DNA from: Nitrospirota bacterium
GTDB lineage: Bacteria > Nitrospirota > JACRHJ01
Length of the DNA stretch: 64,000 nt
Assembly: GCA_016212105.1 (NCBI GenBank)
Contig: JACRHJ010000046.1
Coordinates: 30,136 to 94,135 of the forward strand
Direction: 5' to 3'
Shown: in pieces, positions 14,810-38,700 of the stretch
How positions within the stretch are numbered: position 1 is the stretch's first letter
How the letters are laid out: every line of letters begins with the position of its first letter
Translations under genes and position numbers: made by a program
Notes under the pieces: generated by a model
Databases searched by the model: none
What the model saw: only the letters and a program-made list of their open reading frames with translations
What the model was told of the DNA's origin: nothing

Positions 14810-17800
14810 GTGAACCACCGAATGTCCCTTCTCGAAACCTACATAAAAGAAGTAAGAGACATCCGCGCGACTGGCGCGGGAGTCAAAGAAACCTCCTATT
14901 ACCCTGCCCTGTCCAATCTCTTCAACGAAATCGGCAAGACCCTCAAGCCTAAAGTACGGTGCGTATCGCAGCTTGCCAAACGGGGCGCGGGCAGCCCGGA
15001 TTTCGGGCTGTTTACTGCCGACCAGTTCCAGAAGTCCAATAAGGAAGAGCCTGCACCCGGAGTAATGCCCGCGCGTGGCGTTATCGAGGTCAAGGGCACG
15101 GGCGACGATGCATGGGTTGTCGCGGACGGCGGCCAAGTCTCAAAGTACTGGGAACGTTACGGCCTCGTGCTGGTCACGAACTACCGCGACTTCGTGCTGG
15201 TCGGGAAGGACGTCGAAGGCGCACCGGTCAAGCTGGAGACGTACCGTCTCGCCGCAAATGAAAAGGAGTTCTGGTCAGCAGCGGCGAACCCGCGCAAGTT
15301 TGCCACGGCGCACGAGGAGCGCTTCGTCGAGTATATCAGGCGCGTCCTGCTGCACTCCGCCCCGCTGGAGAAGCCGGAAGACCTGGCGTGGTTCCTCGCG
15401 TCTTACGCGAGAGACGCGAAGGCCCGCATCGAGCACAGCGAGCTTGAGGCGCTCGGCTCCATACGCACCGCGCTGGAGGAAGCGCTCGGCATAAAGTTTA
15501 CAGGCGAAAAGGGCGACCACTTCTTCCGCTCGACCCTCATCCAGACGCTTTTCTACGGCATATTCTCGTCATGGGTGCTTTGGAGCAAGAAGCACAAGCC
15601 CACCGACAAGAAGGCGCGTTTCGACTGGCGCATGGCGGCGTGGAGCCTGCACGTCCCGATGATACGCGCATTGTTCGAGCAGGTGGCGACGCCGACCAAG
15701 CTCGGGCCGCTGGGCCTTGAGGAAGTGCTTGACTGGACGGCTACCGCCCTGAACCGTGTGGACCGCGCGAACTTCTTCGAGAACTTCGAGGAAGGCCATG
15801 CGGTGCAGTACTTCTACGAGCCATTCCTGAAGGCGTTCGACCCGGAGCTTCGCAAAGACCTCGGCGTATGGTATACCCCGCCCGAGGTCGTGAAGTACAT
15901 GGTGGAGCGCGTGGATACCGTCCTGCGCGAGGAACTCGGCCTGCCCGACGGGCTTGCCGACCCGAACGTATACGTCCTCGACCCCTGCACTGGTACAGGC
16001 TCGTTCCTTGTCGAGACGCTCAAGCGAATACACAAGACATACGACGAGCAAGGCGCGGGCGCGCTCGGCGGCGAGAAGCTGAAGGAGGCCGCGAAAAGCC
16101 GCGTCTTCGGGTTCGAGATACTGCCCGCCCCGTTCGTGGTCGCGCACCTTCAGCTCGGGCTTCTGCTTCAGAACCTCGGCGTCCCGCTCTCGGATAAAAA
16201 CAACGAGCGGGTCGGGGTTTACCTGACCAACGCCCTCACCGGCTGGGAGCCTCCTGAAGGCCCGCAGGCGAAAGTTAGCTTTCCTGAACTGGAGGAAGAG
16301 CGCGACGCAGCCGAGCATGTCAAGCGCGACAAGCCCATACTCGTGATACTCGGCAACCCGCCGTATAACGCCTTCGCGGGTGCCAGCCCGCAGGAGGAGC
16401 ACGGGCTGGTCGAGCCGTACAAAGAGGGGCTTGTCAAGGAATGGAAGATAAAGAAGTTCAACCTCGACGACCTGTACGTGCGCTTCTTCCGTCTCGCGGA
16501 GAGGCGGATCGCCGAGAAGACAGGGCGGGGCGTCGTCTGCTATATCTCCAACTTCTCGTACCTGGGCGACCCCTCGTTCGTCGTGATGCGCAAGCGTTTC
16601 CTCGCCGGGTTCGACAGGCTGTGGTTCGACTGCATGAACGGAGATTCCCGCGAGACAGGCAAGGTTACGCCGGACGGGAAGCCCGACCCGTCCGTGTTCT
16701 CGACGGAGTACAACCGCGAGGGGATACGGGTCGGGACGGCTATCGGATTGATGGTTCGGAAGGACGGGCGGGCGGGTTCGCCCGATGTGCGGTTCAGGCA
16801 CTTCTGGGGCGCGGACAAGCGCGGGCAGCTTGTGGAGAGTCTTTCGGCAAAGGACTTTGAAGGCTCTTATGAGATTGCCGAGCCAGAAGCCTGGAATTAC
16901 CATAATTTCAAAATACTTAAGGTATCGGATGAGTATAAAGAGTGGCCGAAGATAATAGACCTGTGCGCACATGAACCCTATAATGGGCCGGTGGAGCGCA
17001 GGGGCATGGCGTTGATTTCTATGGATAAGGATTCACTTGCAAATCGGATATTAGCATATTTCGATGCCGCTATTTCTGATGACGAGATCAAGAAAATTCA
17101 TCCGTCTTTGATGATGACCGGTAACAGAATAGTTGGCCCTGACGCAAGGACGAAAATACAGCACGATTTCAGATATGACGAATCTCGAATTGTACACTAC
17201 CCGTTCAAACCAATGGATGTTCGCTGGTGTTATCTGGAAAATCTGCGGCCATTGTTTAGTGAGCCAAGTCCCCAACTGCTTAATCAAAGAACTCCGGGCA
17301 ATGCATTCTTCATTACCCGTGATTCAGCGGACAAAGACGGCGAGGGCATACCGTTCTACTTCTCCTCAAGTATTTGTGATTATGATGCAATATCTGGTCA
17401 TGCACGACACGTTCCTATGTTAATCAATATCGATGTGTTAAGGAAAACCCCACATAGCGATTATTTGCACAAAAGAGATTTGAAAGCGGAATACGTTTCA
17501 AATATATCTGAACAAGCAATAGTGTACATTGAGGAACTCGGCGTTAATTACCAAAACAACTATGAAACTGCAAGCCTGATCTGGTTGCACGCCCTCGCCA
17601 TCGGCTACTCGCCGCAGTATCTGAAAGAGAACGCCGACGGCATAAAAATAGACTGGCCCCGCATCCCGCTCCCGAACAGCAAGGCGCAACTGCAAAACTC
17701 CGCGAATCTCGGCAAAAAGATAGCCGCGCTCCTCGACACGGAAGGCCAAGTCCCCGGCGTAACCACGGGCAAAATACGACCAGAACTAAAGAATATGGCG

Positions 17801-18292
17801 GCCTGCGCAAAGGTGGGCGGCGGGAACCTCGACATAAACAAAGGCGAGTCCGCCCTGACCGCAGGCTGGGGCCACGGCGGAAAGGACGGCATAACCATGC
17901 CGGGCAAGGGAAAAGCCGTCGAGCGCGACTACACGCCCGAAGAGAAGGCCGCGATAGAAGAAGGCGCAAAGGCGCTCGGCCTTACGCTCGACGAGGCGAT
18001 GGAGCACCTCGGCGAGACCACATATGACATATACCTGAACGATACGGCCTACTGGAAGGACATCCCGCGCAAGGTATGGGAGTACACGATAGGCGGCTAC
18101 CAGGTAATGAAAAAGTGGCTGTCCTACCGCGAGCGCGACCTGCTTGGACGCGCGCTGACCGCCGATGAAATCACCGAGGTGACAAACATGGCGCGCAGGA
18201 TAGCCGCGATAGTCCTGCTTGAGCGGGAACTCGACGGCAACTACATAAAGGCCAAGGATGGCGCATACCGGTGGAAGGGTGAAGGCGGATAA
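14810..18292 (+). CDS. Type IIG/IIL-like fused restriction endonuclease - N6-adenine DNA methyltransferase
   Basis: It is 1160 aa. The N-terminal PD-(D/E)xK-like motif reads GSPDFGLF...GVIEVKG. The gamma-class MTase motifs are VLDPCTGTGSFL (SAM binding) and NPPY (catalytic). A C-terminal specificity region follows. GTG 14810 and ATG 14822 are the candidate starts. Confidence 0.6.
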   Translation: MNHRMSLLETYIKEVRDIRATGAGVKETSYYPALSNLFNEIGKTLKPKVRCVSQLAKRGAGSPDFGLFTADQFQKSNKEEPAPGVMPARGVIEVKGTGDDAWVVADGGQVSKYWERYGLVLVTNYRDFVLVGKDVEGAPVKLETYRLAANEKEFWSAAANPRKFATAHEERFVEYIRRVLLHSAPLEKPEDLAWFLASYARDAKARIEHSELEALGSIRTALEEALGIKFTGEKGDHFFRSTLIQTLFYGIFSSWVLWSKKHKPTDKKARFDWRMAAWSLHVPMIRALFEQVATPTKLGPLGLEEVLDWTATALNRVDRANFFENFEEGHAVQYFYEPFLKAFDPELRKDLGVWYTPPEVVKYMVERVDTVLREELGLPDGLADPNVYVLDPCTGTGSFLVETLKRIHKTYDEQGAGALGGEKLKEAAKSRVFGFEILPAPFVVAHLQLGLLLQNLGVPLSDKNNERVGVYLTNALTGWEPPEGPQAKVSFPELEEERDAAEHVKRDKPILVILGNPPYNAFAGASPQEEHGLVEPYKEGLVKEWKIKKFNLDDLYVRFFRLAERRIAEKTGRGVVCYISNFSYLGDPSFVVMRKRFLAGFDRLWFDCMNGDSRETGKVTPDGKPDPSVFSTEYNREGIRVGTAIGLMVRKDGRAGSPDVRFRHFWGADKRGQLVESLSAKDFEGSYEIAEPEAWNYHNFKILKVSDEYKEWPKIIDLCAHEPYNGPVERRGMALISMDKDSLANRILAYFDAAISDDEIKKIHPSLMMTGNRIVGPDARTKIQHDFRYDESRIVHYPFKPMDVRWCYLENLRPLFSEPSPQLLNQRTPGNAFFITRDSADKDGEGIPFYFSSSICDYDAISGHARHVPMLINIDVLRKTPHSDYLHKRDLKAEYVSNISEQAIVYIEELGVNYQNNYETASLIWLHALAIGYSPQYLKENADGIKIDWPRIPLPNSKAQLQNSANLGKKIAALLDTEGQVPGVTTGKIRPELKNMAACAKVGGGNLDINKGESALTAGWGHGGKDGITMPGKGKAVERDYTPEEKAAIEEGAKALGLTLDEAMEHLGETTYDIYLNDTAYWKDIPRKVWEYTIGGYQVMKKWLSYRERDLLGRALTADEITEVTNMARRIAAIVLLERELDGNYIKAKDGAYRWKGEGG

Positions 18293-24640: not shown

Positions 24641-24715
<75 letters not shown>

Positions 24716-24722
24716 CGCAAAC

Positions 24723-24757
24723 GAAGGGGAAGCCAAAAGGCTTCCCCTTTTGTTGTT
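24723..24757 (+). terminator. rho-independent terminator after tRNA-Val
   Basis: gaaggggaagcc-aaaa-ggcttcccc is followed by ttttgttgtt. Confidence 0.6.
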
Positions 24758-24850: not shown

Positions 24851-25027
24851 TATGCACGGTGGGCGCAGCCCACCCTACAACTTCTTCCCCCTCCCCACCC
24901 GCGGGGGAGGGGGGCAGGGGGGCTGGGGGCGTCTCTACCTTATTCTCCCCCTCTCCTTTCGGGAGAGGGGGCCGGGGGTGAGGGAGCCCCCACTTGCCAT
25001 CCTGAAATTTTATGGCATACTTGTTTC

Positions 25028-25246
25028 ATGTGCTTCGACAAACTCATAGAGCGCCTCGACAGGTTCGAGGCCGACCCGGGACTCATCCACACAAAGGACG
25101 GGGCCGTAGAGCTGCTGTGCGCCGACTGCGACTTCTACAAGGACAGCGACAAGGACCTCGAATGCGGCGCGTTCAAGCTGCTGCGGCTCCTGCTCGACAA
25201 GAAGGCGCTCACGCTGAAGCAGATATCCGATGCGGTCAGGCAGTAG
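25028..25246 (+). CDS. small Cys-containing protein (72 aa); candidate precursor or partner of the downstream radical SAM/SPASM maturase
   Basis: Its stop codon sits 17 nt inside the radical SAM start, consistent with translational coupling. It has 4 Cys (C2, C31, C34, C46: LLCADCDFYKDSDKDLECG) and no recognisable enzyme motif. Confidence 0.3.
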   Translation: MCFDKLIERLDRFEADPGLIHTKDGAVELLCADCDFYKDSDKDLECGAFKLLRLLLDKKALTLKQISDAVRQ

Positions 25247-26489
25247 GTACATAGCCCTGTCCGACGGCTGCGTACTCAGGCGGCTTGAGACCCCGTGCGT
25301 CTACGACAGGCGCACCGATGAGCTGTACGAGCTTGGCGACGAGGCGGCGGAGTTCCTCCGGCTGTGCGACGGGACGAGGACCCTGCGGGAGCTTGGCTGC
25401 GAGCCGGGGGGCGGGTTCGAAGAAGACGCCGACCTGCTCGACTACTGCTTCGCCGAGGGGATCCTCACCGCGTCCGACAGGCCCTCGCCCAGAATCTTCC
25501 GCGACGGCAAGTCCCCGCCGGTATCGCTCCGGTACCTCGAATTCCAGATAACCAGCCGCTGCAACCTGCGCTGCCGCCACTGCTACATAGACCTTGTCGG
25601 CCGCCGGGAGATGGAGGCGCTCGACGTATTCCGTGTTATGGACGAGTTCGACGGGATGCAGGGCCTCAGGCTGCTGATAAGCGGCGGTGAGCCGCTTACG
25701 CACACAGATTTCTGGGCGATCAACGCACGGCTGCCTGAGTACGGTTTCAGGTCCGTCCTGATGACGAACGGGACGCTCGTCGACGCCGAGGCCGCCGAAC
25801 GCCTGAACGTCCAGGAGGCCCAGGTGAGCCTCGACGGCATGCGCGTCGCCCATGACATCATCAGGGGGACCGGCGCGTTCGACAAGGCCGTGGCCGGCAT
25901 CGAACGGCTGCTTGTGGCCGGGAAGAAGGTCTCGGTGGCGACGATGGTAACCGCCATCAACAGGAACGATTTCGACGACATGGCGAGGCTCATGGAATCG
26001 CTCGGCGTGCACGAATGGAACGTGGACGCCCCTTCGCTCACCGGGCGGTTCAGGAACAACCCCGGCCTGCTGCTCCATCCCGAGCTGTCCGCGAGGTACA
26101 TGGAGTACGGCTTCGGAGGCGGGTTGCACGAAGGGCGCGAGGGATACACATGCGGCGCGCACCTCTGCGCGGCCGGGCCGGGCGGGCAGGTCGCCAAATG
26201 CGGATTTTACCTCGACAGCCCGTCGGGTCACATATCGGAAGGGCTTGCCCGGTGCTGGGCCAGGATGGCGCCGGAACCGGTCGGCAAGCTCGACTGCGAC
26301 TGCGTCCATATCGAGAAATGCAGGGGCGGGTGCAGGTTCCGCGCCTCGACATATTCGGGAGAGTTTGGTCCGGACCCGGTGAAGTGCGCCGGTTTCGGTG
26401 TCAGGCCATGCATGGACAGGTTCAACGGGGAAGGAGGTGGCAGGCATGACTATTACAAAGGTAGCGAAGGTATCGGCGAGCGTCTGTAA
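25230..26489 (+). CDS. radical SAM/SPASM peptide-modifying enzyme with N-terminal PqqD-like RRE domain
   Basis: The N-terminus GDEAAEFLRLCDGTRTLREL matches the PqqD/RRE hallmark. The radical SAM cluster is CNLRCRHC, followed by the GGEPL motif. A C-terminal SPASM-type Cys cluster (CDCVHIEKCRGGC) is present, with additional upstream Cys. Confidence 0.75.
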   Translation: MRSGSRYIALSDGCVLRRLETPCVYDRRTDELYELGDEAAEFLRLCDGTRTLRELGCEPGGGFEEDADLLDYCFAEGILTASDRPSPRIFRDGKSPPVSLRYLEFQITSRCNLRCRHCYIDLVGRREMEALDVFRVMDEFDGMQGLRLLISGGEPLTHTDFWAINARLPEYGFRSVLMTNGTLVDAEAAERLNVQEAQVSLDGMRVAHDIIRGTGAFDKAVAGIERLLVAGKKVSVATMVTAINRNDFDDMARLMESLGVHEWNVDAPSLTGRFRNNPGLLLHPELSARYMEYGFGGGLHEGREGYTCGAHLCAAGPGGQVAKCGFYLDSPSGHISEGLARCWARMAPEPVGKLDCDCVHIEKCRGGCRFRASTYSGEFGPDPVKCAGFGVRPCMDRFNGEGGGRHDYYKGSEGIGERL

Positions 26490-26517
26490 GTGCAAGAGTT
26501 CGTGTTAGCCTTGTCGT

Positions 26518-26544
26518 GGCCCGGCCCTATGGCCGGGCCTTTTC
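26518..26544 (+). terminator. probable rho-independent terminator
   Basis: The ggcccggcc-ctat-ggccgggcc hairpin is followed by ttttcag, a short T-tract. Confidence 0.4.
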
Positions 26545-26582
26545 AGTATAACCGCCATTTGTATTTCTGATGGATGAACTTC

Positions 26583-26748: not shown

Positions 26749-26826
<78 letters not shown>

Positions 26827-26911
26827 ATGTGGGCGACGAGGATGGCAAGGGGGGATGGACGGGAGGTTGCCGTCCAAGAGAGTTTCACCCTTGTTTCCGT
26901 CCTCTTGATGG

Positions 26912-26988
26912 GCGCCCGTAGCTCAGGCGGATAGAGCAACAGCCTTCTAAGCTGTGGGCCGCAGGTTCGAGTCCTGCCGGGCGCACCA
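26912..26988 (+). tRNA. tRNA-Arg (anticodon TCT)
   Basis: Acceptor gcgcccg/cgggcgc, anticodon stem acagc/gctgt with loop ctTCTaa, and CCA. Confidence 0.75.
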
Positions 26989-27063
26989 GACTGGCCGGCG
27001 GCATGCAGGACCGGAAAGCGGTGCAAAATCCCCTGGCGCGGAAACGGGCAAGGTCAGCCGGTG

Positions 27064-27139
27064 TGGTGAGTGTAGCACAATGGTAGTGCACCAGATTGTG
27101 GATCTGGGCGTTGTGGGTTCGAGCCCCATCACTCACCCC
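27064..27139 (+). tRNA. tRNA-His (anticodon GTG) with G-1
   Basis: An extra 5' G precedes acceptor gtgagtg/cactcac. The anticodon stem ccaga/tctgg carries loop ttGTGga, and CCA is encoded. Confidence 0.75.
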
Positions 27140-27195
27140 AACTCTTCCGGGCACGAGCTTTGGCGGGAAGCCGTTGTTGTGGCGGGACTTCACAT

Positions 27196-27272
27196 GCGCC
27201 CGTAGCTCAGTTGGATAGAGCGTCGGACTTCGAATCCGCAGGTCGCAGGTTCGAGCCCTGCCGGGCGCACCA
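27196..27272 (+). tRNA. tRNA-Arg (anticodon TCG)
   Basis: Acceptor gcgcccg/cgggcgc, anticodon loop ctTCGaa, T-arm gcagg-ttcgagc-cctgc, and CCA. Confidence 0.65.
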
Positions 27273-27354
27273 TAAGGGGCCCGGGCGGGCAGTCCGGAAG
27301 CCGGGCGGTACTTGGGCTCCGGTTGCGAGAGAATACCCGTACCGCGGGTGATAC

Positions 27355-27431
27355 GCGCCTGTAGCTCAGTTGGATAGAGCAACGGATTCCGGTTCCGTGT
27401 GTCGGGAGTTCGAGTCTCTCCAGGCGCGCCA
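27355..27431 (+). tRNA. tRNA-Arg (anticodon CCG)
   Basis: Acceptor gcgcctg/caggcgc, anticodon stem acgga/tccgt with loop ttCCGgt, and CCA. Confidence 0.75.
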
Positions 27432-27448
27432 GATTTTGCTTTTTAGTT

Positions 27449-27475
27449 GTCATTCCCGCGAAAGCGGGAATCCAG
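27449..27475. repeat. REP-B palindrome copy (between tRNA-Arg and tRNA-Lys)
   Basis: gtcattcccgcgaaagcgggaatccag. Confidence 0.65.
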
Positions 27476-27497
27476 GGTTTATACAATATTTGAAGTT

Positions 27498-27573
<76 letters not shown>

Positions 27574-27804
27574 AAACTTATCAAGGGGTTAGGCGTTATC
27601 GCCTAACCCCTTTGTTGTTTCCGGTTGTTAATATAACCGAGTGCGGCCCTCAGTAATGAAAATGGCAGTTCACGGCTTACAAATTCCGCTAATTGCGCGT
27701 AAACGAGCAACGAGAAGAGCGTTATCGCTATGCATGTCGTACGATTCCATCATTAATTAGCTCCAATATCCTGTACTATATCGATTATCGTTTTATCGTT
27801 CTAC

Positions 27805-27840: not shown

Positions 27841-29493
27841 ATGAGTGTTTTTACTCATAAGATTGATATTGTTGCAGGCGCGTCAACAATAAATGAGGAT
27901 AACGTGAGAAAACTTCATAAAAACGCCAATAAAACCTATTGGCTGTACCTCCTTCTGGTGATATTCGCGGCCGCGCTGGTCGCACCGGACCAGGCCTTTG
28001 CGGCGCCTATCGGCTGCGGAGGCTGTCACAGCACTCCTCCGTCGGATACGGACAGCGAGGGTTGTCTCGTCGAGACCGCCAAGAGCCATCTGGCTCACTC
28101 AAGCGCGGACACCTCCACATGTCTCAGATGCCACCCGGCCCCCGGCACGGTGCACGCGCCCGGCGGCAGGCATTACGACGGCCTGGTCAACGTCACCTCG
28201 CTGCCCGGACTTGGAATGAACTACACCAAGGCGGACTCGACCTGCACGAGCGTCTGCCACAAGAACGAGAACTCATACGTCTGGGGCGGAAGTCTTGACT
28301 GCAACTCCTGCCACTTCAGGAGCGGCGCGCAGGGCAACTACATCATGTCCGGACAGCACATGGCGTCGGACCGGAGTTTCCGGCATTTCAGCTCCCCCAT
28401 AAAGGTCACTGACAACACGAAGACCATTACGTGCGCCAACTGCCACCCTGTAAACGGGGGCGACAACACCGCGCCGCGAAGCCATATCAACTCGGCCAGC
28501 TTCGACAAGAAGGCCGACATGTCGGAGGCGCACACCTACGTCAACGTATCCGGCGTGGGCATCGTAAAGGGCGCGACGGCGGCGGACGCGACCTGCTCGA
28601 ACTCCTGCCACTACAACGGCACGGATACGTTTGGGCTGCTGACGACGTACTTCAGGCCCGGCCAGAAGGTCCGGTTCGGCCCGTACCAGAGTTCGAACTG
28701 GGGCTCGGAAGACCTCAACTGCAACGAGTGCCACAGCTCCCCGAGCCAGAGCGCGAGCTTCGGCGGGTCGAGCAGCGTGAACGCCGACAAGCACCATACG
28801 TCCCACATGTTCAAGTACAAGCTGGCCGCCGGCAGGTACGCGAACGACGACAAGAACATATACTGCTACGACTGCCACCGCCTCCCCGACATGTCAGGGA
28901 CCCGCGGGTTCAAGGGGCACTCCACGACAGGTCAGGGCGGGAGCGGTATGATATCCCTGCCAGTGAAGTCCGGAAACGCCAAGGTGAACATCGCGTGGCG
29001 CAACGGCAACGTCGGCCACGACGGCATCAACCCGCCCGCGTACGACAAGGACGCAAGGACCTGCGACAACGTGTACTGCCACACCGCCATATCTTCCGCG
29101 ACCTGGACCGACAGGGCCTGCGACGACTGCCACGGCGTCCGGGGCGGCGTCCTGACCGGCTCCGGCGCCCCCGGCTACAGGAACTGGACCACCCCGGCCA
29201 CGTACCCCGAGTTCCAGGAGTACGCGGGCGGCGGCGGCGCACACTACCTGCACGTCTTCGGACGCGGGTACACCTGCAACACCTGCCACAGCAGCGGCGG
29301 CAAGGACGGCAACCCCGCCAACCACAACCAGGGCGCGGGTACGGTCATCAGGGCCAACGTGAACGTCGGCATGGAGACCGCGTACTGGTTCAACGGCGTT
29401 CCTTCTTCGTACGATACAGCTACCAGGACCTGCCTGAGCGTCAACTGCCATTACGGGACGTCGAGGAGCTGGGACTGCGAGCCGCTTCATTAA
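27841..29493 (+). CDS. multiheme c-type cytochrome (~12 heme-binding motifs), secreted
   Basis: Of the 12 motifs, eight are CXXCH (CGGCH, CLRCH, CNSCH, CANCH, CNECH, CYDCH, CDDCH, CNTCH). The rest are CX3CH (CTSVCH, CSNSCH) and CX4CH (CDNVYCH, CLSVNCH). The signal peptide is KTYWLYLLLVIFAAALVAPDQAFA. The likely true start is GTG 27904 with a GAGGA RBS. The C-terminal module (...NCHYG.S..W.C) is shared with the 1994-aa paralog. Confidence 0.8.
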   Translation: MSVFTHKIDIVAGASTINEDNVRKLHKNANKTYWLYLLLVIFAAALVAPDQAFAAPIGCGGCHSTPPSDTDSEGCLVETAKSHLAHSSADTSTCLRCHPAPGTVHAPGGRHYDGLVNVTSLPGLGMNYTKADSTCTSVCHKNENSYVWGGSLDCNSCHFRSGAQGNYIMSGQHMASDRSFRHFSSPIKVTDNTKTITCANCHPVNGGDNTAPRSHINSASFDKKADMSEAHTYVNVSGVGIVKGATAADATCSNSCHYNGTDTFGLLTTYFRPGQKVRFGPYQSSNWGSEDLNCNECHSSPSQSASFGGSSSVNADKHHTSHMFKYKLAAGRYANDDKNIYCYDCHRLPDMSGTRGFKGHSTTGQGGSGMISLPVKSGNAKVNIAWRNGNVGHDGINPPAYDKDARTCDNVYCHTAISSATWTDRACDDCHGVRGGVLTGSGAPGYRNWTTPATYPEFQEYAGGGGAHYLHVFGRGYTCNTCHSSGGKDGNPANHNQGAGTVIRANVNVGMETAYWFNGVPSSYDTATRTCLSVNCHYGTSRSWDCEPLH

Positions 29494-29578
29494 GACAGGC
29501 GATAAAGGATTACGAGATATACGGAACTGAACTTTCTGAGTTTTGAAGTTAACTTGTTAAGAGGCGAGGGAGGCTGGG

Positions 29579-32500
29579 ATGGAAAAGAGAAGGCGGACCG
29601 GAGTTGCTTCGGGCTGGATGTTGATGCTGGCATTCGTGGTTAGCATGTTCATCCCGGCCGTGGCGCACGCGACCAAGGCCACCAACCCGGGCACGGTGAC
29701 GTGCACCCAGAACGGGAGCGCGATAGACGTCGTCGCCACGTTCACGATAGTCAACTGCGCCGGTGGCGACACGAACCTGCCCCAGTTCTATGTGGAGTGG
29801 GACATAGACCCGGACGGCGGCGGCGCCGGCGTGCCGGACTGGACGGGCACGGGTTACGGCAACAGCGGGAGCTACGCCACGGACAACACCACGCCGTACA
29901 ACTACACGACGCCCGCACTCACGTTGGGCAACAGCTATGCCGTCAGGGTCACCTATCAGGACTTGGACGGCATCGGCGTCACGTGCGGCGGCGCCACCAC
30001 GCAGGTGGTCAACGGCAACAACGTCCAGCTCGGCAACAACTCGACCACGACCGGCTCGCTCAGCTCCCCGTCGCAGACCATGAACTCGGTGGACCTGGAG
30101 GCGACGTACACAAACGACGACAACAACAGTAACACTGCCGTCTTCGAGTACCAGCACCCGGTCAACGGCTGGACGACCATCAGCGGCCCCAGCGTGACGA
30201 GGGGGACGAAGACCTGGTCGGTGTCGGCCACCGGCCTGGACCCCGGCACGTCTTACAACTTCAGGGTGACATTCTCTGACGGCGACACGGTCAGCGGCAC
30301 GAACCCGGTAACCGGCAGCTACTCCACCATGGTCTTCTGCAGCAGCACGGTCACCGGCTGCACCGACTGCCACACTATGCCGCCGTCCGCCGGCGACCAC
30401 GAGATCAGCGCCCACAAAGGCGCGGGCGCCCGCGACGACTGCGCGGTCTGCCACTACAACTACGCCGCGATGACCAACGTGACATCGGCGTCGAGGTGGC
30501 TGACCGGCCATTCGAACCTTACTATGGACATATACACCTCCAACCACGTTGCGAACAAGGTCTTCTCCGCCCCGTACGACAAGGGCATCAAGGGCGGCTA
30601 CTACAAGGGCTACAGGAACTCTTCCACCTTGTGGGAAGACAAAACGCCCAACGCAAACAACGTCTGCGCCGCTACGTACTGCCACGGCGCGGGCGACTCG
30701 CCCGTTTGGGGCGTCGGCACGGCTTCCTGCGGAAGCTGCCACGGCGTGTCCACACCGCCGGCCGGAGGCAAGCACGGCTCCCACACCAACGGCTACGTCG
30801 GGTACAAGGACAGCTCCAACGCGACGACATACAACTTCGGCTGCTACAAGTGCCACGACGAAGGGACGGTAGGCCACTCGTCCGGGCCGAGCAGTGCCAA
30901 CCAGGCGGCGGCCGTCGGCTTCGACAACCGCACCGCCCCGTTCAACCCCTCGGGCAGCTACACCCCGGGCGGCTCGACGGCCGGCACGGACGGCACGTTC
31001 AACTGGACCAACGGCACATGCGCGAGCCTTTACTGCCACTCAGACGGCAAGGGCGGCTACACCAACCCGACCTGGAACGGCACGCTTGCCGCCAACTGCC
31101 TCGGCTGCCACAAGAACAACAAGGCATCCGGCGGCGGCAACATCATGGCCACCGGCAAGCACACGGAGCACGTTAACAACGCGGACGCGAACCTTGCCAC
31201 GTACGGCTGCGTGAAATGTCACAACGCGACAGTCAGCGCGGACAGGACGCTCTCCGACAAGTCCAAGCACGTGGACGGGACCCCGAACGTCGCCTTCGAC
31301 ACGCTCAACCCGTCCGGCTCATACTCGAGCCCGGACTGCTCGACGGCCTACTGCCACAGCACCGGCCAGTCCACGCCTTCCTACCAGACCCCTGACTGGA
31401 ACACGGGCGCGGCCCTCACATGCGACGGCTGCCACGGCGTCGAGGGCGTCGCGCTTTCGGCCGGCGCTCCGGAATACGCGAACGCCTCCACTAGCAACAG
31501 GAACACGTTCAACAGCCACGACAAGCACGCGCTTGCCGACGCGGACTGCGTGAACTGCCACGGCCAGACCGTGGACGGGGCCAAGGCCATAGTCGCCTCC
31601 TCCCGTCACATCGACACGTTCAGGAACGTAAGCTTCGCCAAGGGCGGCACGTACAACACCACGCTCAAGCGCTGCGACAACACCGACTGCCACGGCACGA
31701 CCGAGATGCGCTGGGGCGGGTCGCTCCCGGCAAGCTGCCAGAGCTGCCACAGCGACATGGGCGCGGGCACGAACGGTTCGCACGGCAATACGGGCAAGCA
31801 CGACAGGCACACAAACGCGTACGGCTACGCCTGCGAGGTATGCCACGCCACGAAGAACGCCACCGGAAACACCAGCCATGCGGGCGGCGACGTATCGTCA
31901 AAGCACGCGGCACAGGTGTTCTTCAACAGGTCCGCGACGGTCTGGACCGCCATACAGTACGGCGGCGGCGGTTCGAGCTTCAAGTACCTCCAGATGGACA
32001 GCGCGTTCGGCCTCTCGGGCATCGCGCCAATCTACAAGCCGGCGACCACCGCTTCCGCACAGTCGGACCCGATAAGCCTCAACAGGAAGTGGACCGAGGG
32101 CCGCTGCGAGAACGTCTGGTGCCACTCGAACGCGAACCCGATGGGCGGCGCGATGCAGTACGCGCAGTTCGCCAACTGGTCGGCCTCCGAGGCGACAACA
32201 TGCACGTCCTGCCACGGCGGGCCCGGGACATACGCCGCCGTGTCGCTGTCCGCGAAGCACAAGATGCACGCGGGCACGGACAGGTACTCGTACGCATGCA
32301 GCGAGTGCCATAACGCGACGGTCGGCTCCGGCAACTCGCCGGTCACCGACCTGACGAAGCATGTCAACGCGGTCAAGGACGTTGGCTTCGACGGCACCAA
32401 CGTCAGCGGCTCCTACACAGGCCCGAACTGCTCCACCCTTTACTGCCACGGCGACGGAAACGGCGGCACCGGCGGCGCTGCCTGGAACGGCGCGGCCACG

Positions 32501-35500
32501 ACCTGCACGAGCTGCCATGCCTACTCGGCCCTTGCCACGAGCAAGCACGACGAGCATCTGGCGGGCGGCAACCTCGCCTCCTTCAGGTGCGGTGACTGCC
32601 ACAAGGTCACAGTGCAGACCAACAATACGACGATCAACTATGCACTGGGCAAGCACGTCAACAGCACCAAGGACGTCTCGTTCAAGGCGATGGGCAGCTA
32701 CACCGGCTTCTACACGGCGTCAAGGACCTGCCGGAACTCCTACTGCCACAGCTCGGGCCAGGCCACTCCGAGCTTCCGCACGGCGGCCGACTGGTCGGGC
32801 GCCACTGCATACGGCTGCGCCTCCTGCCACGGCGCTGACTCGGCATTCCTCGCGCCGTCCGGCGAGCCAAACTACGCAAACGTCTCTACGGCCACCAGGA
32901 ACGCGTTCAACAGCCACAGCTCCCACGTAACCGCGTCCACGGACTGCGCCAGGTGCCACAACACCACGGTCGACGCCTCGCAGGCAGTACTCGCGGGCGG
33001 CAAGCACCTTGACACGGCGCGCGACGTATCGTTCGCCAAGGGCGGCACGTACAACAACACGAGCAAGCGCTGCAACAACACCGACTGCCACGGCACGACG
33101 CAGATGCGCTGGGGCGGCAGGCTTCCGAAGAACTGCCAGTCCTGCCACTCCGACATGGGCTCGGGCACGTACGCGAACCACAGCTCGACCGGCAAGCACG
33201 GCAAGCACGTGGCGACTTACGGCTACGCCTGCGAGGTCTGCCACGCGACCAAGAACGCATCCGTCAACACCAGCCATGCGGGCGGCGACGTCTCGTCCAA
33301 ACATGCGGCGCAGGTGTTCTTCAACACATCCGCCACGGTATGGGCGAACGTCACTTACGGCGGTGGCGGCGCGTCGCTCAAGTACAGGCAGATGGACGGC
33401 GCATACGGCCAGAACGGCATAGCCCCGGTCTACACCCCGTGGACGACCACCACGGCGCTCTCCGACCCGCTCAGCCCGAACCGCAAGTACACCCAGGGCC
33501 GCTGCGACAACATATGGTGCCACTCCAACGCGAAACCGCTGGGCGGCGTCATAACCTACGCGAAGTTCGCCAACTGGTCGACGGGCGAGACCGCGACATG
33601 CACCTCCTGCCATGGTGGGGCTGGCACGTTTGCGAACGTAACGCTTTCCGACGCGCACAAGAAGCATGTCGGTACGGACCGCTACGGCTACACCTGCAGC
33701 GAGTGCCACAACGCAACCGTCTCGGCGGGCAACTCGCCGGTAACGGACTACAGCAAGCACGTCAACGCGGCCAAGGAAGTGGGCTTCGACGGGACCAACC
33801 CGGCCGGCACGTACACCAGCCCGAGCTGCGCGAACCTCGCCTGCCACGGTAACGGAAACGGCGGCACCGGCTCCTATGCATGGAACGGCGCCGCGACAAC
33901 ATGCGCGAGCTGCCACAACTACACCGTTGGCTCGGGCTCGCCGATTACGACCGGCGCACACGGCACGCACATCAACCAGGGCAACCTCGGCGTGTCCAAG
34001 TGCGTAGACTGCCACAAGCTGACGGTGCTGAACAACAACACCACGATCCAGTACTCGACCGGCAACCACGTAAACCAGGTCAAGACGGTGTCGATGAAGA
34101 GCTTTAACTCCTACACCGGCTTCTACACAGCATCGAACACCTGCCGGAACGCGTACTGCCACAGCTCCGGCCAGTTCGTACCGGCCTTCGTCACGACCCC
34201 GGTCTGGGCCTCCGGCAGCCTCACCTGCGACGGCTGCCACGGCGCCGAGGGTGCGACGCTCGTTGCCGGCTCGCCGGAGTACGCGAACGTGTCCACGACC
34301 AACAGGAACACGTTCAACGGACACGCGGTAAGCGGGCACGTCGGCGCGGCAACCGACTGCATCAAGTGCCACAACTCCACCGTCGACGCCGCGGGCGCGA
34401 TAAAGGCCGGCTCCCTGCACCTCGACGGTTCGAGGAACGTGAGCTTCCAGCTCGGCGGCAGCTACGACAGCACGAACAAGCGCTGCAGCAACACCGACGC
34501 AGGGTGCCACGGCACGACGACCATGCGCTGGGGCGGCTCGGGCACCTGCTCAACCTGCCACCAGGTGACTACGGCCGAGGACGACGACTATACATACGGT
34601 TCTCTGCCGAAGGCGACAGTGAACTTCTACGAGTACACCTCGGTCGGCCACGGCAAGAAGGGCGCGTACAGGTACACCGGCAACACCGGCGCGGACCTGG
34701 CCTGCACCTCGTGCCACAGCATGACGACACCGCACAACGCGGCTACCAACCCGTTCAGGCTGATATCCTCGGCGACCATCAAGCCGAGCCAGCCGAACAC
34801 GCTGTGCGCGTCCTGCCACGGGACGGTGGGCAACCACGACTTCGCGCACGTCGCGCAGGGCACCTGGTCCTGGACGCCGAAGTGCGTAGACTGCCACGAC
34901 CCGCACGGCGACAACGGCGGCGTGACGACCACGGAGAGAAACGGCGCGATGGTGCAGAAGCAGGTGTCCTACACCGCGTCCAACACCTACGGCGTGCCGG
35001 GCACCACCGAGGCCGTAGACTTCCCGGCCAACTACGCCCGCGCAAAGAGCCTCGCGGCTTTCAACTGGTCGAGCTTCGTGGTCAACACCGGCCAGGCCAA
35101 CAAGGGCATATGCCGCGTCTGCCATACGCAGGCGAGCACGAACTACTTCACGAGGACCGTGTCCAGCTCTACCCATGAGATCGGCTCGGCCTGCATAACC
35201 TGCCATTCGCACCCGGCAGGGTTCCAGCCGCCGGCCTGCGACAGCTGCCACGGCAACCCGCCGAACACCGGCGACGCGAAGACCGACACGCAGGGCGCGG
35301 TCGGCGCGCACGCCAAGCACGTGAACAGGGGCATGAGCTGCTACGACTGCCACAAGTCGAACCAGCACAACCAGTCCGGCGTCTCCAGCGGGTACTCCGG
35401 CGCGCTCACCCCGGGCTTCGTGAACATGAGCGTCGCATACACGTTCAAGTTCAACGGCAGCCTGCCGAACTACAACGGTACGCCGGGCGGCTGGAGCACG

Positions 35501-35563
35501 AGCAAGACCTGCAGCAACGTAAACTGCCATTACGGCGAGTCGAAGGACTGGAGCTGCCAGTAA
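29579..35563 (+). CDS. giant multiheme c-type cytochrome, 1994 aa, ~45 heme-binding motifs
   Basis: The signal peptide is MLMLAFVVSMFIPAVAHA. A non-heme N-terminal ~250 aa Thr/Gly/Asn-rich region comes first, then 45 CX(2-6)CH motifs: about 32 CXXCH, about 12 CX4CH (for example CAATYCH, CENVWCH, CRNSYCH) and 1 CX6CH. The protein is built of three ~470-aa tandem modules. Confidence 0.85.
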   Translation: MEKRRRTGVASGWMLMLAFVVSMFIPAVAHATKATNPGTVTCTQNGSAIDVVATFTIVNCAGGDTNLPQFYVEWDIDPDGGGAGVPDWTGTGYGNSGSYATDNTTPYNYTTPALTLGNSYAVRVTYQDLDGIGVTCGGATTQVVNGNNVQLGNNSTTTGSLSSPSQTMNSVDLEATYTNDDNNSNTAVFEYQHPVNGWTTISGPSVTRGTKTWSVSATGLDPGTSYNFRVTFSDGDTVSGTNPVTGSYSTMVFCSSTVTGCTDCHTMPPSAGDHEISAHKGAGARDDCAVCHYNYAAMTNVTSASRWLTGHSNLTMDIYTSNHVANKVFSAPYDKGIKGGYYKGYRNSSTLWEDKTPNANNVCAATYCHGAGDSPVWGVGTASCGSCHGVSTPPAGGKHGSHTNGYVGYKDSSNATTYNFGCYKCHDEGTVGHSSGPSSANQAAAVGFDNRTAPFNPSGSYTPGGSTAGTDGTFNWTNGTCASLYCHSDGKGGYTNPTWNGTLAANCLGCHKNNKASGGGNIMATGKHTEHVNNADANLATYGCVKCHNATVSADRTLSDKSKHVDGTPNVAFDTLNPSGSYSSPDCSTAYCHSTGQSTPSYQTPDWNTGAALTCDGCHGVEGVALSAGAPEYANASTSNRNTFNSHDKHALADADCVNCHGQTVDGAKAIVASSRHIDTFRNVSFAKGGTYNTTLKRCDNTDCHGTTEMRWGGSLPASCQSCHSDMGAGTNGSHGNTGKHDRHTNAYGYACEVCHATKNATGNTSHAGGDVSSKHAAQVFFNRSATVWTAIQYGGGGSSFKYLQMDSAFGLSGIAPIYKPATTASAQSDPISLNRKWTEGRCENVWCHSNANPMGGAMQYAQFANWSASEATTCTSCHGGPGTYAAVSLSAKHKMHAGTDRYSYACSECHNATVGSGNSPVTDLTKHVNAVKDVGFDGTNVSGSYTGPNCSTLYCHGDGNGGTGGAAWNGAATTCTSCHAYSALATSKHDEHLAGGNLASFRCGDCHKVTVQTNNTTINYALGKHVNSTKDVSFKAMGSYTGFYTASRTCRNSYCHSSGQATPSFRTAADWSGATAYGCASCHGADSAFLAPSGEPNYANVSTATRNAFNSHSSHVTASTDCARCHNTTVDASQAVLAGGKHLDTARDVSFAKGGTYNNTSKRCNNTDCHGTTQMRWGGRLPKNCQSCHSDMGSGTYANHSSTGKHGKHVATYGYACEVCHATKNASVNTSHAGGDVSSKHAAQVFFNTSATVWANVTYGGGGASLKYRQMDGAYGQNGIAPVYTPWTTTTALSDPLSPNRKYTQGRCDNIWCHSNAKPLGGVITYAKFANWSTGETATCTSCHGGAGTFANVTLSDAHKKHVGTDRYGYTCSECHNATVSAGNSPVTDYSKHVNAAKEVGFDGTNPAGTYTSPSCANLACHGNGNGGTGSYAWNGAATTCASCHNYTVGSGSPITTGAHGTHINQGNLGVSKCVDCHKLTVLNNNTTIQYSTGNHVNQVKTVSMKSFNSYTGFYTASNTCRNAYCHSSGQFVPAFVTTPVWASGSLTCDGCHGAEGATLVAGSPEYANVSTTNRNTFNGHAVSGHVGAATDCIKCHNSTVDAAGAIKAGSLHLDGSRNVSFQLGGSYDSTNKRCSNTDAGCHGTTTMRWGGSGTCSTCHQVTTAEDDDYTYGSLPKATVNFYEYTSVGHGKKGAYRYTGNTGADLACTSCHSMTTPHNAATNPFRLISSATIKPSQPNTLCASCHGTVGNHDFAHVAQGTWSWTPKCVDCHDPHGDNGGVTTTERNGAMVQKQVSYTASNTYGVPGTTEAVDFPANYARAKSLAAFNWSSFVVNTGQANKGICRVCHTQASTNYFTRTVSSSTHEIGSACITCHSHPAGFQPPACDSCHGNPPNTGDAKTDTQGAVGAHAKHVNRGMSCYDCHKSNQHNQSGVSSGYSGALTPGFVNMSVAYTFKFNGSLPNYNGTPGGWSTSKTCSNVNCHYGESKDWSCQ
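31421..35563 (+). repeat. three tandem ~1.4-kb coding repeat units inside the 1994-aa cytochrome gene (unit boundaries ~31421, ~32816, ~34225)
   Basis: Units 1 and 2 are about 85% identical at the DNA level. An example is ...aagcgctgcgacaacaccgactgccacggcacgac... versus ...aagcgctgcaacaacaccgactgccacggcacgac.... Unit 3 is more diverged. Confidence 0.6.
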
Positions 35564-35576
35564 GTCGTAGGGAGAA

Positions 35577-35607
35577 CCCCCTGGAGGCCGGTAACGGCCT
35601 CCAGGGG
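35577..35607 (+). terminator. strong stem-loop (cccctggaggccg-gtaa-cggcctccagggg) after cytochrome 2; no U-tract
   Basis: It is a perfect 13-bp stem. It is related to the stem-loop after cytochrome 3 (42241..42267), sharing the gaggccg-N3-4-cggcctc core. It may be an attenuator or an RNA-stability element rather than a full terminator. Confidence 0.4.
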
Positions 35608-35623
35608 TGAACTTATTCAGGTC

Positions 35624-35652
35624 TTGGGTATTGGCCGAAAATGTGCTATATT
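35624..35652 (+). promoter_or_regulatory. candidate extended -10 sigma-70 promoter (TTGGGT-N17-TGcTATATT) for the second giant cytochrome
   Basis: The extended -10 element aTGtGcTATATT lies at 35642..35652, about 120 nt upstream of the ATG at 35776. Confidence 0.3.
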
Positions 35653-35775
35653 CGGCCTTGTCCCTAGCCCTGAAAAGTGCGGACGCGGGGAGAAACTCCG
35701 CGTCCTTCTGGTTGCGTTATTCAATACGAGACCTTATATTTAATAGATATAGATTTTCCGCACACGGAGGAACCG

Positions 35776-38700
35776 ATGAGGCGTATAGCTCTCGAAGGCA
35801 GTATCACATACATTGCCGCGCTGGCGGCGGCGCTGATAGTCATGTTGTCGCCAGGCTCCGCGCTTGCGGTCAAGTATTGGACCAATACCGGGACGGTCAC
35901 TGCTACGGCGAACGGCAATGCGATAAACGTCAGCGCGACCTACACCACAGGTGGCACAAGCTGCGGTAACGGCGGAGACACAGCGCCGACGTTCTTCGTG
36001 GAGTGGGACGTTACGCCCGCCGACTGGACGGGCGCGGGATACGGCTCGTCCGGCGGGTACAATGCGGACACGGGCGGGGTATCGCCTTACGCCTATACGA
36101 CGCCAAACCTCGCGGCCGGGACCTACGCGGTCAGGGTTACCTACGAAGACGCCAACGGTATAGCCTCCTGCGGCGGCGGCAACGTCGCGGTAAACGCCGG
36201 CTCCAACGTGACGCTGGTAGCGAACAACCTCACAGTGGGGACGAACTCCGCGGTAGTAAACTCGTCGACGCAGATAACCGCCTCGGCGACGTTCTCTGAC
36301 GACATCAACGGGAACAGCAACACCAGCTTCCGTTACAGCACGAACGCCGGCGGCCCCTGGACGGACAAGTGCCTGAGCGTTACAGGAAATTCGCCGCGTA
36401 CCTGCGTGATAGACGGCCTCTCCGCGAGCACGGACTACTACGTACAGGTAACGCATGCAGACGCGGACGGCGTGACCGGGACGAACCCGCAGGTCGTGGG
36501 CCCGTACACGACACAGTCCGCGGTCGCCTGCGACCCGCTGGTCAACGACTGCTCAGACTGCCACGCGGCCCCGCCTGCCGACTGGGACGGTATCAGCCCG
36601 AAGGCCGGTACCACCGGCCACAAGGGCGACCACGCAGTCCCCGCCCACACCTCGGACGGCGCGAGGGACAAGTGTGCGATATGCCACTTCAAGTATTCGG
36701 GCATGGTGAATGTCACATCGGCCGCGCGCTGGCCGGTGGGACATTTAAACGGCATACTGGACATATATACATCCAACCACGTGGCAAACAAGGTATTCTC
36801 CGCCCCGTACGACAAGGGCATCAAGGGCGGCTACTACAAGGGCTACAGGAACAGGTCAACCATATTCGAAGAAAAAGCCGCGAACGCCAACAACGCCTGC
36901 ACTGCGACGTACTGCCACGGCGCGGGCGACTCGCCCGTATGGGGGACAGGCACGGCCTCGTGCGGCAGCTGCCACTCGCTTCCGCCGTCCGCGGGCAAGC
37001 ACGCAACGCACAGCCAGGGACTCGTCGGGCACGGAAACGGCAACAGCGGCACGACTTACGACTTCGGCTGCTACAAATGCCACTCCAACACGTCGGGCCA
37101 CTCCGCCGGCCCGGTGAGCGCGAACCGCGCGGCGCTTGTGGACTTCAACAACCTCTCGTCGCCCGTGAACGCCTCCGGCTCCTACGTGGAAGGCGCGCTC
37201 GCGGGCACGGACGGGACGTTCAAATGGACGAACGGGACCTGCAACGGCCTTTACTGCCACTCGACCGGCAAGGGCGGCGCGCCCGGCACCACGGCCACCT
37301 GGAACGGCACGATGGCGGCGAACTGCGCGGGCTGCCACAGGGGCACTACGGCATCCGGAACGCCGATGAACTCGGGCAAGCACACCCAGCACATGACCTC
37401 CGGCGCGTACAACTACGCCTGCAACAAGTGCCACAACGACACGACCACCACCGGCACGACCGTGACTAATACCGCGTTCCACGTCAACTCCTCGATCGAC
37501 GTGAAGTTCGAGGGGCAGAACCCCACCGGCTCATATGCTGGCACGACATGTTCGAGCATGTCCTGCCACTCGGACGGCGCGGGCGGCACGGGAAGCGCGG
37601 ACTGGACCGGTGCCGCCATGACATGCACGTCGTGCCACAAGTTCAACAAGGCCGCGGCCCCCAACGACATCACAAGCGGGAAGCACACGCAGCACATAAA
37701 CAACGGCGACCTCGGCAAGATATCCTGCTCGCAGTGCCACAGGCTGACCGTCAGCGCGGGCGATTCGCCCGTCACCGGCTACTCAAGGCACGTGAACGCC
37801 GCCAAGGACGTCTATTTCAACGCGCTCAACACTTACACCGGCTTCTACACCGGCGCGTACACCTGCCGCAACAACTACTGCCACAGCTCGGGCCAGGCGA
37901 CCCCGACGTTCCGGACTGCTGACGCGTGGAACGGCGCGACGACGTACACGTGCAACGCGTGCCACGGCGCGGACAACTACTACACGGACGTGAACGGGTC
38001 TCCTGACTACCAGAACGTCTCGTCCTCGACGCGCAACAGCTTCAACGGGCATTACCTGCCCGGCCACGTAGCCGCGACCGGCGACTGCATCGACTGCCAC
38101 AGGACTGTCGTGAACAACTTCGGGAACCTGACGACCGGCACGGTGAAGCACATAGACGCCACGAGGGACGTTATGTTCAAGGGCGGCGGCTCATACGCCA
38201 ACAAGCGCTGCACGAACACGAACTGCCACGGGACGACTGCGGTGCGCTGGGGCGGCAAGCTTCCGAAGGACTGCCAGTCCTGCCACAGCGACCAGGGCGC
38301 GGGCTCGTATGCGAACCACAGCACGACCGGCAAGCACAGGAAGCACACTGATTCGGCGACCTACAACTACGCGTGCGAGGTATGCCACGCGCTCCTTAAC
38401 GCGAGCGGCAACACGGACCACGCGAAGGGCGACGTCGGCGCGAACCAGGCTGCGCAGATAGTGTTCCACAGCGCGACGACGGCATGGCGCACGAAGACCT
38501 ACGGCTCTGGCGGCGCCGCCAAGCGGTACGTCCAGATGGACAGCGCGCTTGGCGCGGCGCACAGCCCTGTATACGCGGCCGGCCCGGCCTCGGCGGGCTC
38601 CGACCCGGTGAACGTGAACCGCAAGTGGACTCAGGGCCGCTGCACTGCCATATGGTGCCACTCGAACGGCCAGAGCACGCCGACGTACGTTAACTTTGCT

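Follow-up and report, generated by a model that had tools for sequence, protein, structure and literature searches.

This locus raises the question of what a radical S-adenosylmethionine (SAM) enzyme and a small cysteine-containing protein do together in a two-gene unit that stands on its own. The unit lies in a stretch of 64,000 nt from the 107-kb contig JACRHJ010000046.1 of a metagenome-assembled Nitrospirota genome (GenBank assembly GCA_016212105.1), the whole of which is referred to here as the window, and its products are annotated as a 'hypothetical protein' and a 'radical SAM protein'. An earlier note on this DNA had proposed that they are the precursor and the maturase of a ribosomally synthesised and post-translationally modified peptide (RiPP), of the sactipeptide, ranthipeptide or pyrroloquinoline quinone (PQQ) type, with a RiPP recognition element (RRE) fused to the enzyme. 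We find the two genes to be a deeply conserved pair in many anaerobic bacteria and in Asgard archaea, the enzyme combining an RRE-like domain with a radical SAM core and a SPASM-type region, and the small protein being predicted to fold around a loop with three invariant cysteines. The reading that we favour, at about an even chance and by analogy with the SCIFF/CteB and QhpC/QhpD systems, is that the enzyme would modify this dedicated small protein inside the cell.

The enzyme is a member of the radical SAM superfamily, as it contains the CX3CX2C motif and has PF04055, the radical SAM core, as its sole above-threshold Pfam match (65.9 bits against a cutoff of 29.5, E=6.6e-18). A SPASM-type cluster of cysteines had also been noticed before, and both the three cysteines of the core motif and the seven of the C-terminal region proved to be invariant among homologues (Table 1). 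The spacing of the latter is C-x15-C ... C-x-C-x5-C-x3-C ... C, with CX1C where CX2C is usual; the SPASM model TIGR04085 scores 20.3 bits on this region, below its cutoff of 27, and the Pfam SPASM model gives no match. In the N-terminal 95 residues the only Pfam match is PqqD, again below threshold (E=0.071, 13.9 bits against a cutoff of 23.4), and the stretch FLRLCDGTRTLREL fits the PqqD helix-turn pattern when judged by eye; a profile of this domain matched no PDB sequences. An AlphaFold2 model of the whole enzyme, built on a 47-sequence alignment, has a mean predicted local distance difference test score (pLDDT) of 89.1 and a predicted template modelling score (pTM) of 0.88. When it was compared with the PDB using Foldseek, SkfB came first (E 1.8e-17), followed by precursor-bound SuiB (TM 0.67 over 455 columns) and CteB (5why), and the model aligns over its full length with these three RRE-containing enzymes (387-455 columns) at an identity of only 14-19%; anSME (E 1e-10), viperins and MoaA are found lower in the ranking. 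A profile search of PDB sequences also places SkfB first (1.2e-21), then BlsE, PqqE, CteB, MoaA and a viperin-like enzyme, with anSME ninth (2.2e-9), and by these rankings the enzyme does not group with the anSME and BtrN-like enzymes that the earlier note had set apart from peptide maturases. The architecture which that note described, an RRE-like (PqqD-like) domain followed by radical SAM and SPASM regions, is therefore supported, mainly by structure prediction and cysteine conservation and not by hidden Markov model (HMM) thresholds. To our knowledge, all characterised fused enzymes of this kind act on an adjacently encoded peptide or protein, which we count in favour of the small protein as substrate.

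Two further features of the enzyme may be recorded here. Cysteines of the N-terminal domain were considered as a conserved three-cysteine site that would pair with the three cysteines of the small protein, and rejected, as they are not invariant (C14 in 43, C46 in 74 and C73 in 82 of 87 homologues). A motif of the approximate form [KE]GG-x3-D-[YD]-x-[KE]-G is present in the tail of the Nitrospirota and Desulfobacterota members and absent from those of the Actinomycetota and Chloroflexota.

Assignment of the enzyme to a curated family was attempted with NCBIfam, which returned 73 partial matches, the best 25 of these 73 all being far below cutoff. The highest is NirJ (TIGR04051), with 107.6 bits against 515 over residues 106-276 only, and NirJ, NirJ1 and AhbD as a group score 91-108 bits on the radical SAM core alone (residues 100-275), which does not place the enzyme among those of haem d1 or haem b formation. 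The MftC model (TIGR03962) reaches 86.5 bits against 265, no mft or pqq genes are found in the window or at related loci, and the enzyme falls outside the mycofactocin and PQQ systems; the PqqE, QhpD, SCIFF and SCIFF-maturase models are not among the best 25 of the 73 matches. Judged by these sequence models, neither protein of the pair is a member of any curated family beyond PF04055, the assignments to SCIFF, MftC, PqqE, NirJ/Ahb and anSME all failing, and a full-text literature search returned no description of the pair. The NirJ, NirJ1 and AhbD scores, together with the position of BlsE as second among the PDB sequence matches, could be taken to mean that the substrate is not a peptide but a tetrapyrrole, cofactor or nucleoside, as in NirJ, AhbD and BlsE, and that the small protein has no functional tie to the enzyme or only a regulatory one. 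We consider this highly improbable, and the least likely of the explanations weighed here: the scores concerned are far below their cutoffs and limited to the core, a ligand of peptide or protein nature is favoured by the RRE-like domain and by a fold that matches peptide maturases over its full length, genes of haem or cofactor pathways are lacking nearby in the window and at related loci, and the adjacency of the two genes in bacteria and archaea, in three arrangements, cannot be incidental.

The small open reading frame (ORF) is a real gene and not a chance ORF, as shown by its homologues and by its GC content at third codon positions (GC3) of 0.89, that of the enzyme gene being 0.83 and the overall GC content of the window 0.605. 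A word-indexed search found 32 homologues, with 40-97% identity in the alignment and almost all of 54-77 aa, several of them on contigs equal in length to contigs with enzyme homologues. A profile search that covered 1.84 billion representatives exhaustively gave 97 clusters (50% identity), all of 33-134 aa and some with two matched stretches. Four cysteines had been counted in the product; the number is right (C2, C31, C34 and C46), but C2 is not conserved and only the other three are. Around them F36, K38, S40, D41, K42, D43, L44, E45, G47, A48 and K50 are invariant in the alignment, giving a family motif of C-x2-C-[DE]-F-Y-K-x-S-D-K-D-L-E-C-G-A-F-K. In the AlphaFold2 model, made on a 96-sequence alignment, the first of the three cysteines closes helix 3, the second lies in the loop after it and the third immediately precedes helix 4; short family members dispense with the first two helices and keep one helix, the cysteine loop and the two helices that follow. 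There are no Pfam or NCBIfam matches to the small protein, including to the SCIFF, sactipeptide and other precursor models, and PDB searches by fold and by sequence found no relative. The C-terminal pattern 'LLxxLLxKGxLTxxEI' recalls a PqqD helix-turn, and the small protein was considered as a split or degenerate RRE; this was rejected, as the profile-profile comparison with the N-terminal domain of the enzyme gave a probability of only 0.9%.

A second family consists of double-repeat proteins of 100-146 aa (76 matches, Promethearchaeota and Helarchaeota among them). Sequence logos give the spacings of the repeat classes as C-x2-C-x11/12-C, C-x3-C-x12/15-C and C-x2-C-x6-C-x10/11-C, and all classes retain two cysteines, a pair of aromatic residues at +2/+3, and a third cysteine, after which come G/x-[GA]-[FY] and an amphipathic helix.

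The association of the two families was followed across genomes. A scan of species representatives (one genome per species) gave at least 473 relatives of the enzyme, of which the best 80 were kept, and these together with loci looked up directly make up 86 non-duplicate loci, in which the small gene was sought by HMM and regular-expression scans; the enzyme family comprises at least 120 clusters (90% identity) with E below 1e-110. A member of the small-protein family is adjacent to the enzyme gene in 58 of the 86 loci, from Nitrospirota, Desulfobacterota, Chloroflexota, Actinomycetota and Asgard archaea, on the same strand in 39 loci, divergently in 18 and in another arrangement in one. In six more the small gene lies 0.8-7 kb from the enzyme gene, and in the remaining 22 none was found in the flanking DNA examined. 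Most other loci with the small gene upstream on the same strand have the same 17-nt overlap (distance -16) as the window, as verified directly in L001, in L002/L003 (a 58-aa form), in L005 (Desulfobacterota, 54 aa) and in L008, while the two genes of L006 (Actinomycetota, 82 aa) follow each other directly, the small gene first, with no overlap. The double-repeat form of Nitrospirota is usually divergent from the enzyme gene (L009, L092), and Asgard archaea have the enzyme gene ahead of the small one, with a 4-nt overlap in L091 and the same order in L010. All six look-ups begun from small proteins landed beside a member of the enzyme family. The loci retrieved are all from metagenome-assembled genomes, with no cultured isolate among them. 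Homologous pairs in other genomes, which the earlier note had suggested looking for, are thus found across phyla, and adjacency that is kept through three gene arrangements and two domains of life indicates that the two are functionally linked. One protein of 120 aa, P0177, is of a different composition: its first ~50 residues resemble the strands and first helix of the enzyme's RRE-like domain (YALAPHCSLKRLETPALYD...LYELDEEALRFL), while the remainder consists of a small-protein repeat. Shuffling of domains could explain this protein, as could an artefact of assembly or gene calling.

These data allow the precursor proposal to be assessed. As a classical secreted RiPP system, the 72-aa ORF would be a leader-core precursor, cleaved and exported as a sactipeptide- or ranthipeptide-type product, and the RRE, radical SAM and SPASM architecture, the best fold matches to sactisynthases and SuiB, and the position of a cysteine-containing small ORF upstream, with probable translational coupling, all agree with this. 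An RRE-dependent precursor is expected to be short and divided into leader and core, and here the adjacent gene is conserved, yet its product is predicted to be folded and helical and has no hypervariable core, being conserved over its whole length across phyla; it also occurs in duplicated and fused forms, and its gene may be divergent from or kilobases away from that of the enzyme. Clustering of the neighbours at the 86 loci revealed no universally conserved third gene and no recurring protease, exporter or immunity gene, only lineage-restricted companions, and the unit in the window has no protease, transporter or immunity gene either. The lack of a match to any NCBIfam or Pfam precursor model, and a broad, housekeeping-like distribution that includes Asgard archaea and is ill-suited to a secreted antibiotic, point the same way. 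We therefore regard a secreted product as very unlikely; judged from its model, the small protein looks like a folded partner and not like a typical antibiotic precursor.

We infer instead that the small protein is the substrate of the enzyme, because of the enzyme's architecture, because there is no other candidate substrate and because many residues of the loop other than cysteine are invariant. According to this proposal, the two proteins would be made together, the 17-nt overlap of their genes suggesting translational coupling, and the RRE-like domain would dock the small protein. The radical SAM cluster would cleave SAM to give the 5'-deoxyadenosyl radical and, with the two SPASM auxiliary clusters, the enzyme would install at least one intramolecular modification in or near the loop C-x2-C-[DE]-F-Y-K-x-S-D-K-D-L-E-C-G-A-F. 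Most probably the enzyme would form thioethers that link cysteine to an acidic or a neighbouring residue; an alternative is an aromatic C-C crosslink at the invariant F-Y. The final product would be the full-length modified small protein, which would remain in the cell with no leader cleavage or export.

Several observations weigh against this proposal. The AlphaFold2 model of the small protein is a confident, compact five-helix fold (pLDDT 92.9, pTM 0.80), and such an all-helical fold is unusual for an RRE-recognised precursor; nor is a leader/core split or a cleavage motif visible in the alignment. Relative to the pair of the window, the core of the small protein equals or exceeds the enzyme in conservation in 30 of 38 pairs, with a median identity of 52% for the former and 47% for the latter. 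Tandem-duplicated forms exist, and in the double-repeat forms the fourth invariant cysteine of repeat 2 aligns with the Asp of S-D-K-D in an ungapped count from the second cysteine, an apparent Asp-to-Cys correspondence between repeat classes that is the pattern expected of metal or cluster ligands and not of crosslink sites. In a natural fusion (P0151, MCL6620512.1, 506 aa, Syntrophobacterales, L093:6001-7521) a small protein of the double-repeat form runs into the enzyme with hardly any linker, and no separate small gene lies beside it; the fusion is found in three independent assemblies (506-517 aa) and so is not a sequencing error, and fusions are typical of subunits. Finally, of the 22 loci with no small gene, 10 are on contigs that end near the enzyme gene, and 12 have ~2-8 kb of flanking DNA on both sides.

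The same observations give substance to another explanation, in which the small protein is an accessory subunit, an unmodified metal- or Fe-S-binding partner that docks on the N-terminal domain as an electron relay, a cluster or sulfur donor or an adaptor, the substrate of the enzyme being encoded elsewhere. Its three invariant cysteines lie at helix ends and in a loop of a confidently predicted compact fold, three cysteines plus Asp in the single repeats correspond to four cysteines in the second repeat of the double forms, and its evolution by duplication and fusion is like that of a domain. Its conservation and, in Nitrospirota, the divergent or distant placement of its gene also fit this explanation. 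There is precedent in Dph3, a small cysteine protein that gives electrons to Dph1-Dph2. A second parallel is provided by the LPL small proteins, which are always encoded upstream of SPASM enzymes and have been proposed to be auxiliary (PMC8939145). Against it, an extra chaperone or relay is not obviously needed by an enzyme that already comes with an RRE-like domain and two predicted auxiliary clusters, and no alternative substrate gene is conserved nearby at the 86 loci. The near-invariant F36, Y37 and K38 and the S-D-K-D-L-E stretch, which is invariant among close homologues, exceed what metal ligation needs, and the PDB searches gave no sequence or fold match to a ferredoxin, a rubredoxin or a zinc ribbon. 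We know of no SPASM enzyme with such a dedicated non-substrate cysteine protein. An accessory role is accordingly held to be a serious possibility, although a less probable one than modification of the small protein by the enzyme.

The neighbourhoods of related loci bear on what the pair might be for. Rubrerythrins of three families are neighbours at 15, 12 and 7 loci, Fe/Mn superoxide dismutase at 13, the alpha and beta subunits of pyruvate:ferredoxin oxidoreductase at 16 and 13, NifU at 7 and NifS at 6, DsrC-like proteins at 8, a nitroreductase at 7 and a TudS/DUF1722 protein at 9. A protein of the flavin adenine dinucleotide (FAD) amine-oxidase family is found at 12 loci, which belong to Desulfobacterota as well as to Chloroflexota. 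At 18 loci, in Desulfobacterota only, an ATP-grasp protein is encoded directly downstream. The recurrence of rubrerythrin, superoxide dismutase, NifU/NifS and pyruvate:ferredoxin oxidoreductase hints at a role in Fe-S or oxidative-stress physiology, and the same genes, with DsrC, would also speak for a metal- or Fe-S-binding accessory subunit. Much of this signal may be shared synteny, and it is therefore treated as a lead and not as evidence; the window itself has none of these recurrent redox and Fe-S neighbours. Extending the favoured reading, it might be proposed, more doubtfully than either role taken by itself, that the pair is an ancient housekeeping system of strict anaerobes, spread over at least five bacterial phyla and Asgard archaea, in which maturation by the enzyme would turn the three-cysteine protein into either a cofactor borne by the protein or a crosslinked module for redox or metal handling, with a role tied to Fe-S or oxidative-stress physiology.

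The features of the unit in the window are collected in Table 1. As had been claimed, it is isolated between a tRNA gene, which has a hairpin of its own, and a terminator, and the small ORF ends exactly 17 nt inside that of the enzyme; no other candidate substrate is found among the ORFs of the unit. The -10 element of the promoter-like site stops 7 nt short of the small ORF's start codon, ATG, and a Shine-Dalgarno sequence is not seen upstream of this codon, which suggests that the operon mRNA may be leaderless.

Table 1. Features of the two-gene unit and its boundaries, in positions of the window
Feature	Position	Strand	Description and basis
tRNA-Val(GAC)	24641-24715	+	Upstream boundary, outside the unit
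Terminator-like hairpin of tRNA-Val	24723-24750	+	Outside the unit
Promoter-like site	24994..25021	+	TTGCCA, 16-nt spacer, TG-CATACT; sigma-70-like consensus scan only
Gene for small three-cysteine protein	25028..25246	+	72 aa, MBI5191140.1; cross-phylum conservation, GC3, AlphaFold model
Invariant cysteine loop	25118..25165	+	C31-A-D-C34-D-F-Y-K-D-S-D-K-D-L-E-C46, between predicted helices H23-30 and H47-57
Overlap of the small gene (3' end) with the enzyme gene (5' end)	25230..25246	+	17 nt
Gene for radical SAM/SPASM enzyme with N-terminal RRE-like domain	25230..26489	+	419 aa, MBI5191141.1
RRE-like (PqqD-like) domain	25248..25475	+	Residues 7-82, holding EFLRLCDGTRTLREL (residues 41-55); AlphaFold strands and two helices, pLDDT mostly 77-95
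Radical SAM cluster motif	25560..25583	+	C111-N-L-R-C115-R-H-C118; invariant in 87/87 homologues
SPASM-type auxiliary-cluster region	26151..26387	+	C308, C324, C356, C358, C364, C368 and C386; invariant in 87/87 homologues
Predicted disordered C-terminal tail	26415..26486	+	Residues 396-419; pLDDT <50
Intrinsic-terminator-like hairpin	26518..26549	+	Nine all-GC pairs (26518-26539), then a T run; closes the two-gene unit

Between the hairpin of the tRNA and the promoter-like site there is a GC-rich, structured spacer. Its region 24881-24978 has strong predicted folding (z = -3.6) and contains two tandem hairpin units of C-runs and G-runs, CCCCCTCYCC-loop-GGRGAGGGGG, at 24887-24913 and 24947-24971 with a spacing of 58 nt; the pattern has no further copy in the window, and its chance expectation is 0. 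These units match no Rfam family, and upstream of the small ORF no riboswitch or known RNA came to light, only tRNAs and sub-threshold noise. On the minus strand a mirror ORF of 419 aa (25236-26495) was taken to be a GC-rich antisense artefact, the homologues belonging to the plus-strand product. The surroundings of the pair in the window encode a Usp protein, membrane proteins, tRNAs and giant multihaem cytochromes. Six tRNA genes (Pro-TGG, Arg-TCT, His-GTG, Arg-TCG, Arg-CCG and Lys-CTT) are tightly clustered at 26750-27574, after the operon terminator, and are followed at 27841-42228 by three consecutive, very large multihaem cytochrome ORFs. These are 550, 1994 and 2183 aa long and carry 8, 32 and 28 CxxCH motifs, as well as several CxxxCH and CxxxxCH variants, the 1994-aa protein being internally repetitive. 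Further away, at 14810-18292, an ORF of 1160 aa has an N6 DNA methylase domain and a C-terminal specificity domain of the Type ISP restriction-modification kind.

The type of module is itself known, and what is new here is an enzyme with RRE-like, radical SAM and SPASM-type regions that has a novel, predicted folded three-cysteine partner of very broad distribution. The enzyme family is large and is not represented by a curated family, and its partner has no Pfam, NCBIfam or PDB relative. The pair addresses a standing question in the radical SAM and RiPP fields, namely the purpose of stand-alone two-gene peptide-maturase modules, and as only two genes are involved it is a tractable target. Whether the outcome is a new protein-level modification or a new accessory subunit of SPASM enzymes, thousands of pairs now listed as 'radical SAM protein' and 'hypothetical protein' in the genomes of anaerobes and Asgard archaea would become annotatable.

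Of the systems with which the pair can be compared, SkfB, AlbA and SuiB share with the enzyme, as modelled, an N-terminal peptide-binding domain, a radical SAM barrel and a C-terminal auxiliary-cluster domain, and SkfB and SuiB are its best fold matches. They act on short leader-core precursors, and the protease, export or immunity genes that accompany them are lacking here. The PqqE/PqqD/PqqA and MftC/MftB/MftA systems, which make peptide-derived redox cofactors, combine a SPASM enzyme, an RRE and a strongly conserved small precursor, to which the SPASM-type region, the RRE-like domain and the small protein of the pair would correspond. Their product is used inside the cell, and PqqE is among the top PDB sequence matches and PqqD the sole, below-threshold Pfam match of the N-terminal domain. 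The tailoring genes pqqB/C/F and mftD/E/F are lacking here, however, and the partner is far larger and is predicted to be folded. The LPL proteins of Bacteroidetes graspetide loci and Dph3 with Dph1-Dph2 resemble the pair in that a small protein is tightly tied to a radical SAM enzyme, the small protein being in their case proposed (LPL) or known (Dph3) to be an auxiliary and not the substrate; their sequences are unrelated and those systems have a separate, identified substrate.

Closer to the favoured reading is QhpD with QhpC, the gamma subunit of quinohaemoprotein amine dehydrogenase, where a radical SAM-SPASM enzyme modifies a small protein and not a short peptide, and where this protein, once modified, is retained by the cell and functions there, as is proposed here. 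The small proteins of both systems have several cysteines near conserved Asp or Glu residues. Thioethers between Cys and Asp or Glu are the known chemistry of QhpD. The systems differ in that no qhpA, qhpB, qhpE, qhpF or qhpG genes are near the pair in the window or at related loci, and QhpC is largely unstructured before crosslinking, whereas the small protein described here is predicted to be helical. SCIFF, finally, is the ranthipeptide system of Clostridia. The two systems have no sequence relationship, no SCIFF model being among the best 25 of the 73 NCBIfam matches, and SCIFF is a peptide of ~45 aa with six cysteines, whereas here there are three invariant cysteines in a central loop of a predicted folded, helical protein of 50-72 aa, which is also found duplicated and fused. 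Their distributions differ too, Clostridia in the one case and Nitrospirota, Desulfobacterota, Chloroflexota, Actinomycetota and Asgard archaea in the other. What they have in common is a radical SAM enzyme of the RRE and SPASM build, as judged here mainly from its model (CteB/Tte1186 in SCIFF, the CteB structure being one of the top three fold matches), and a highly conserved, cysteine-bearing small product encoded adjacently, in a stand-alone module of two genes with no protease or exporter. SCIFF has a wide, housekeeping-like distribution, as does this pair, which would make the latter a second and phylogenetically much broader example of widespread non-antibiotic maturase modules of two genes.

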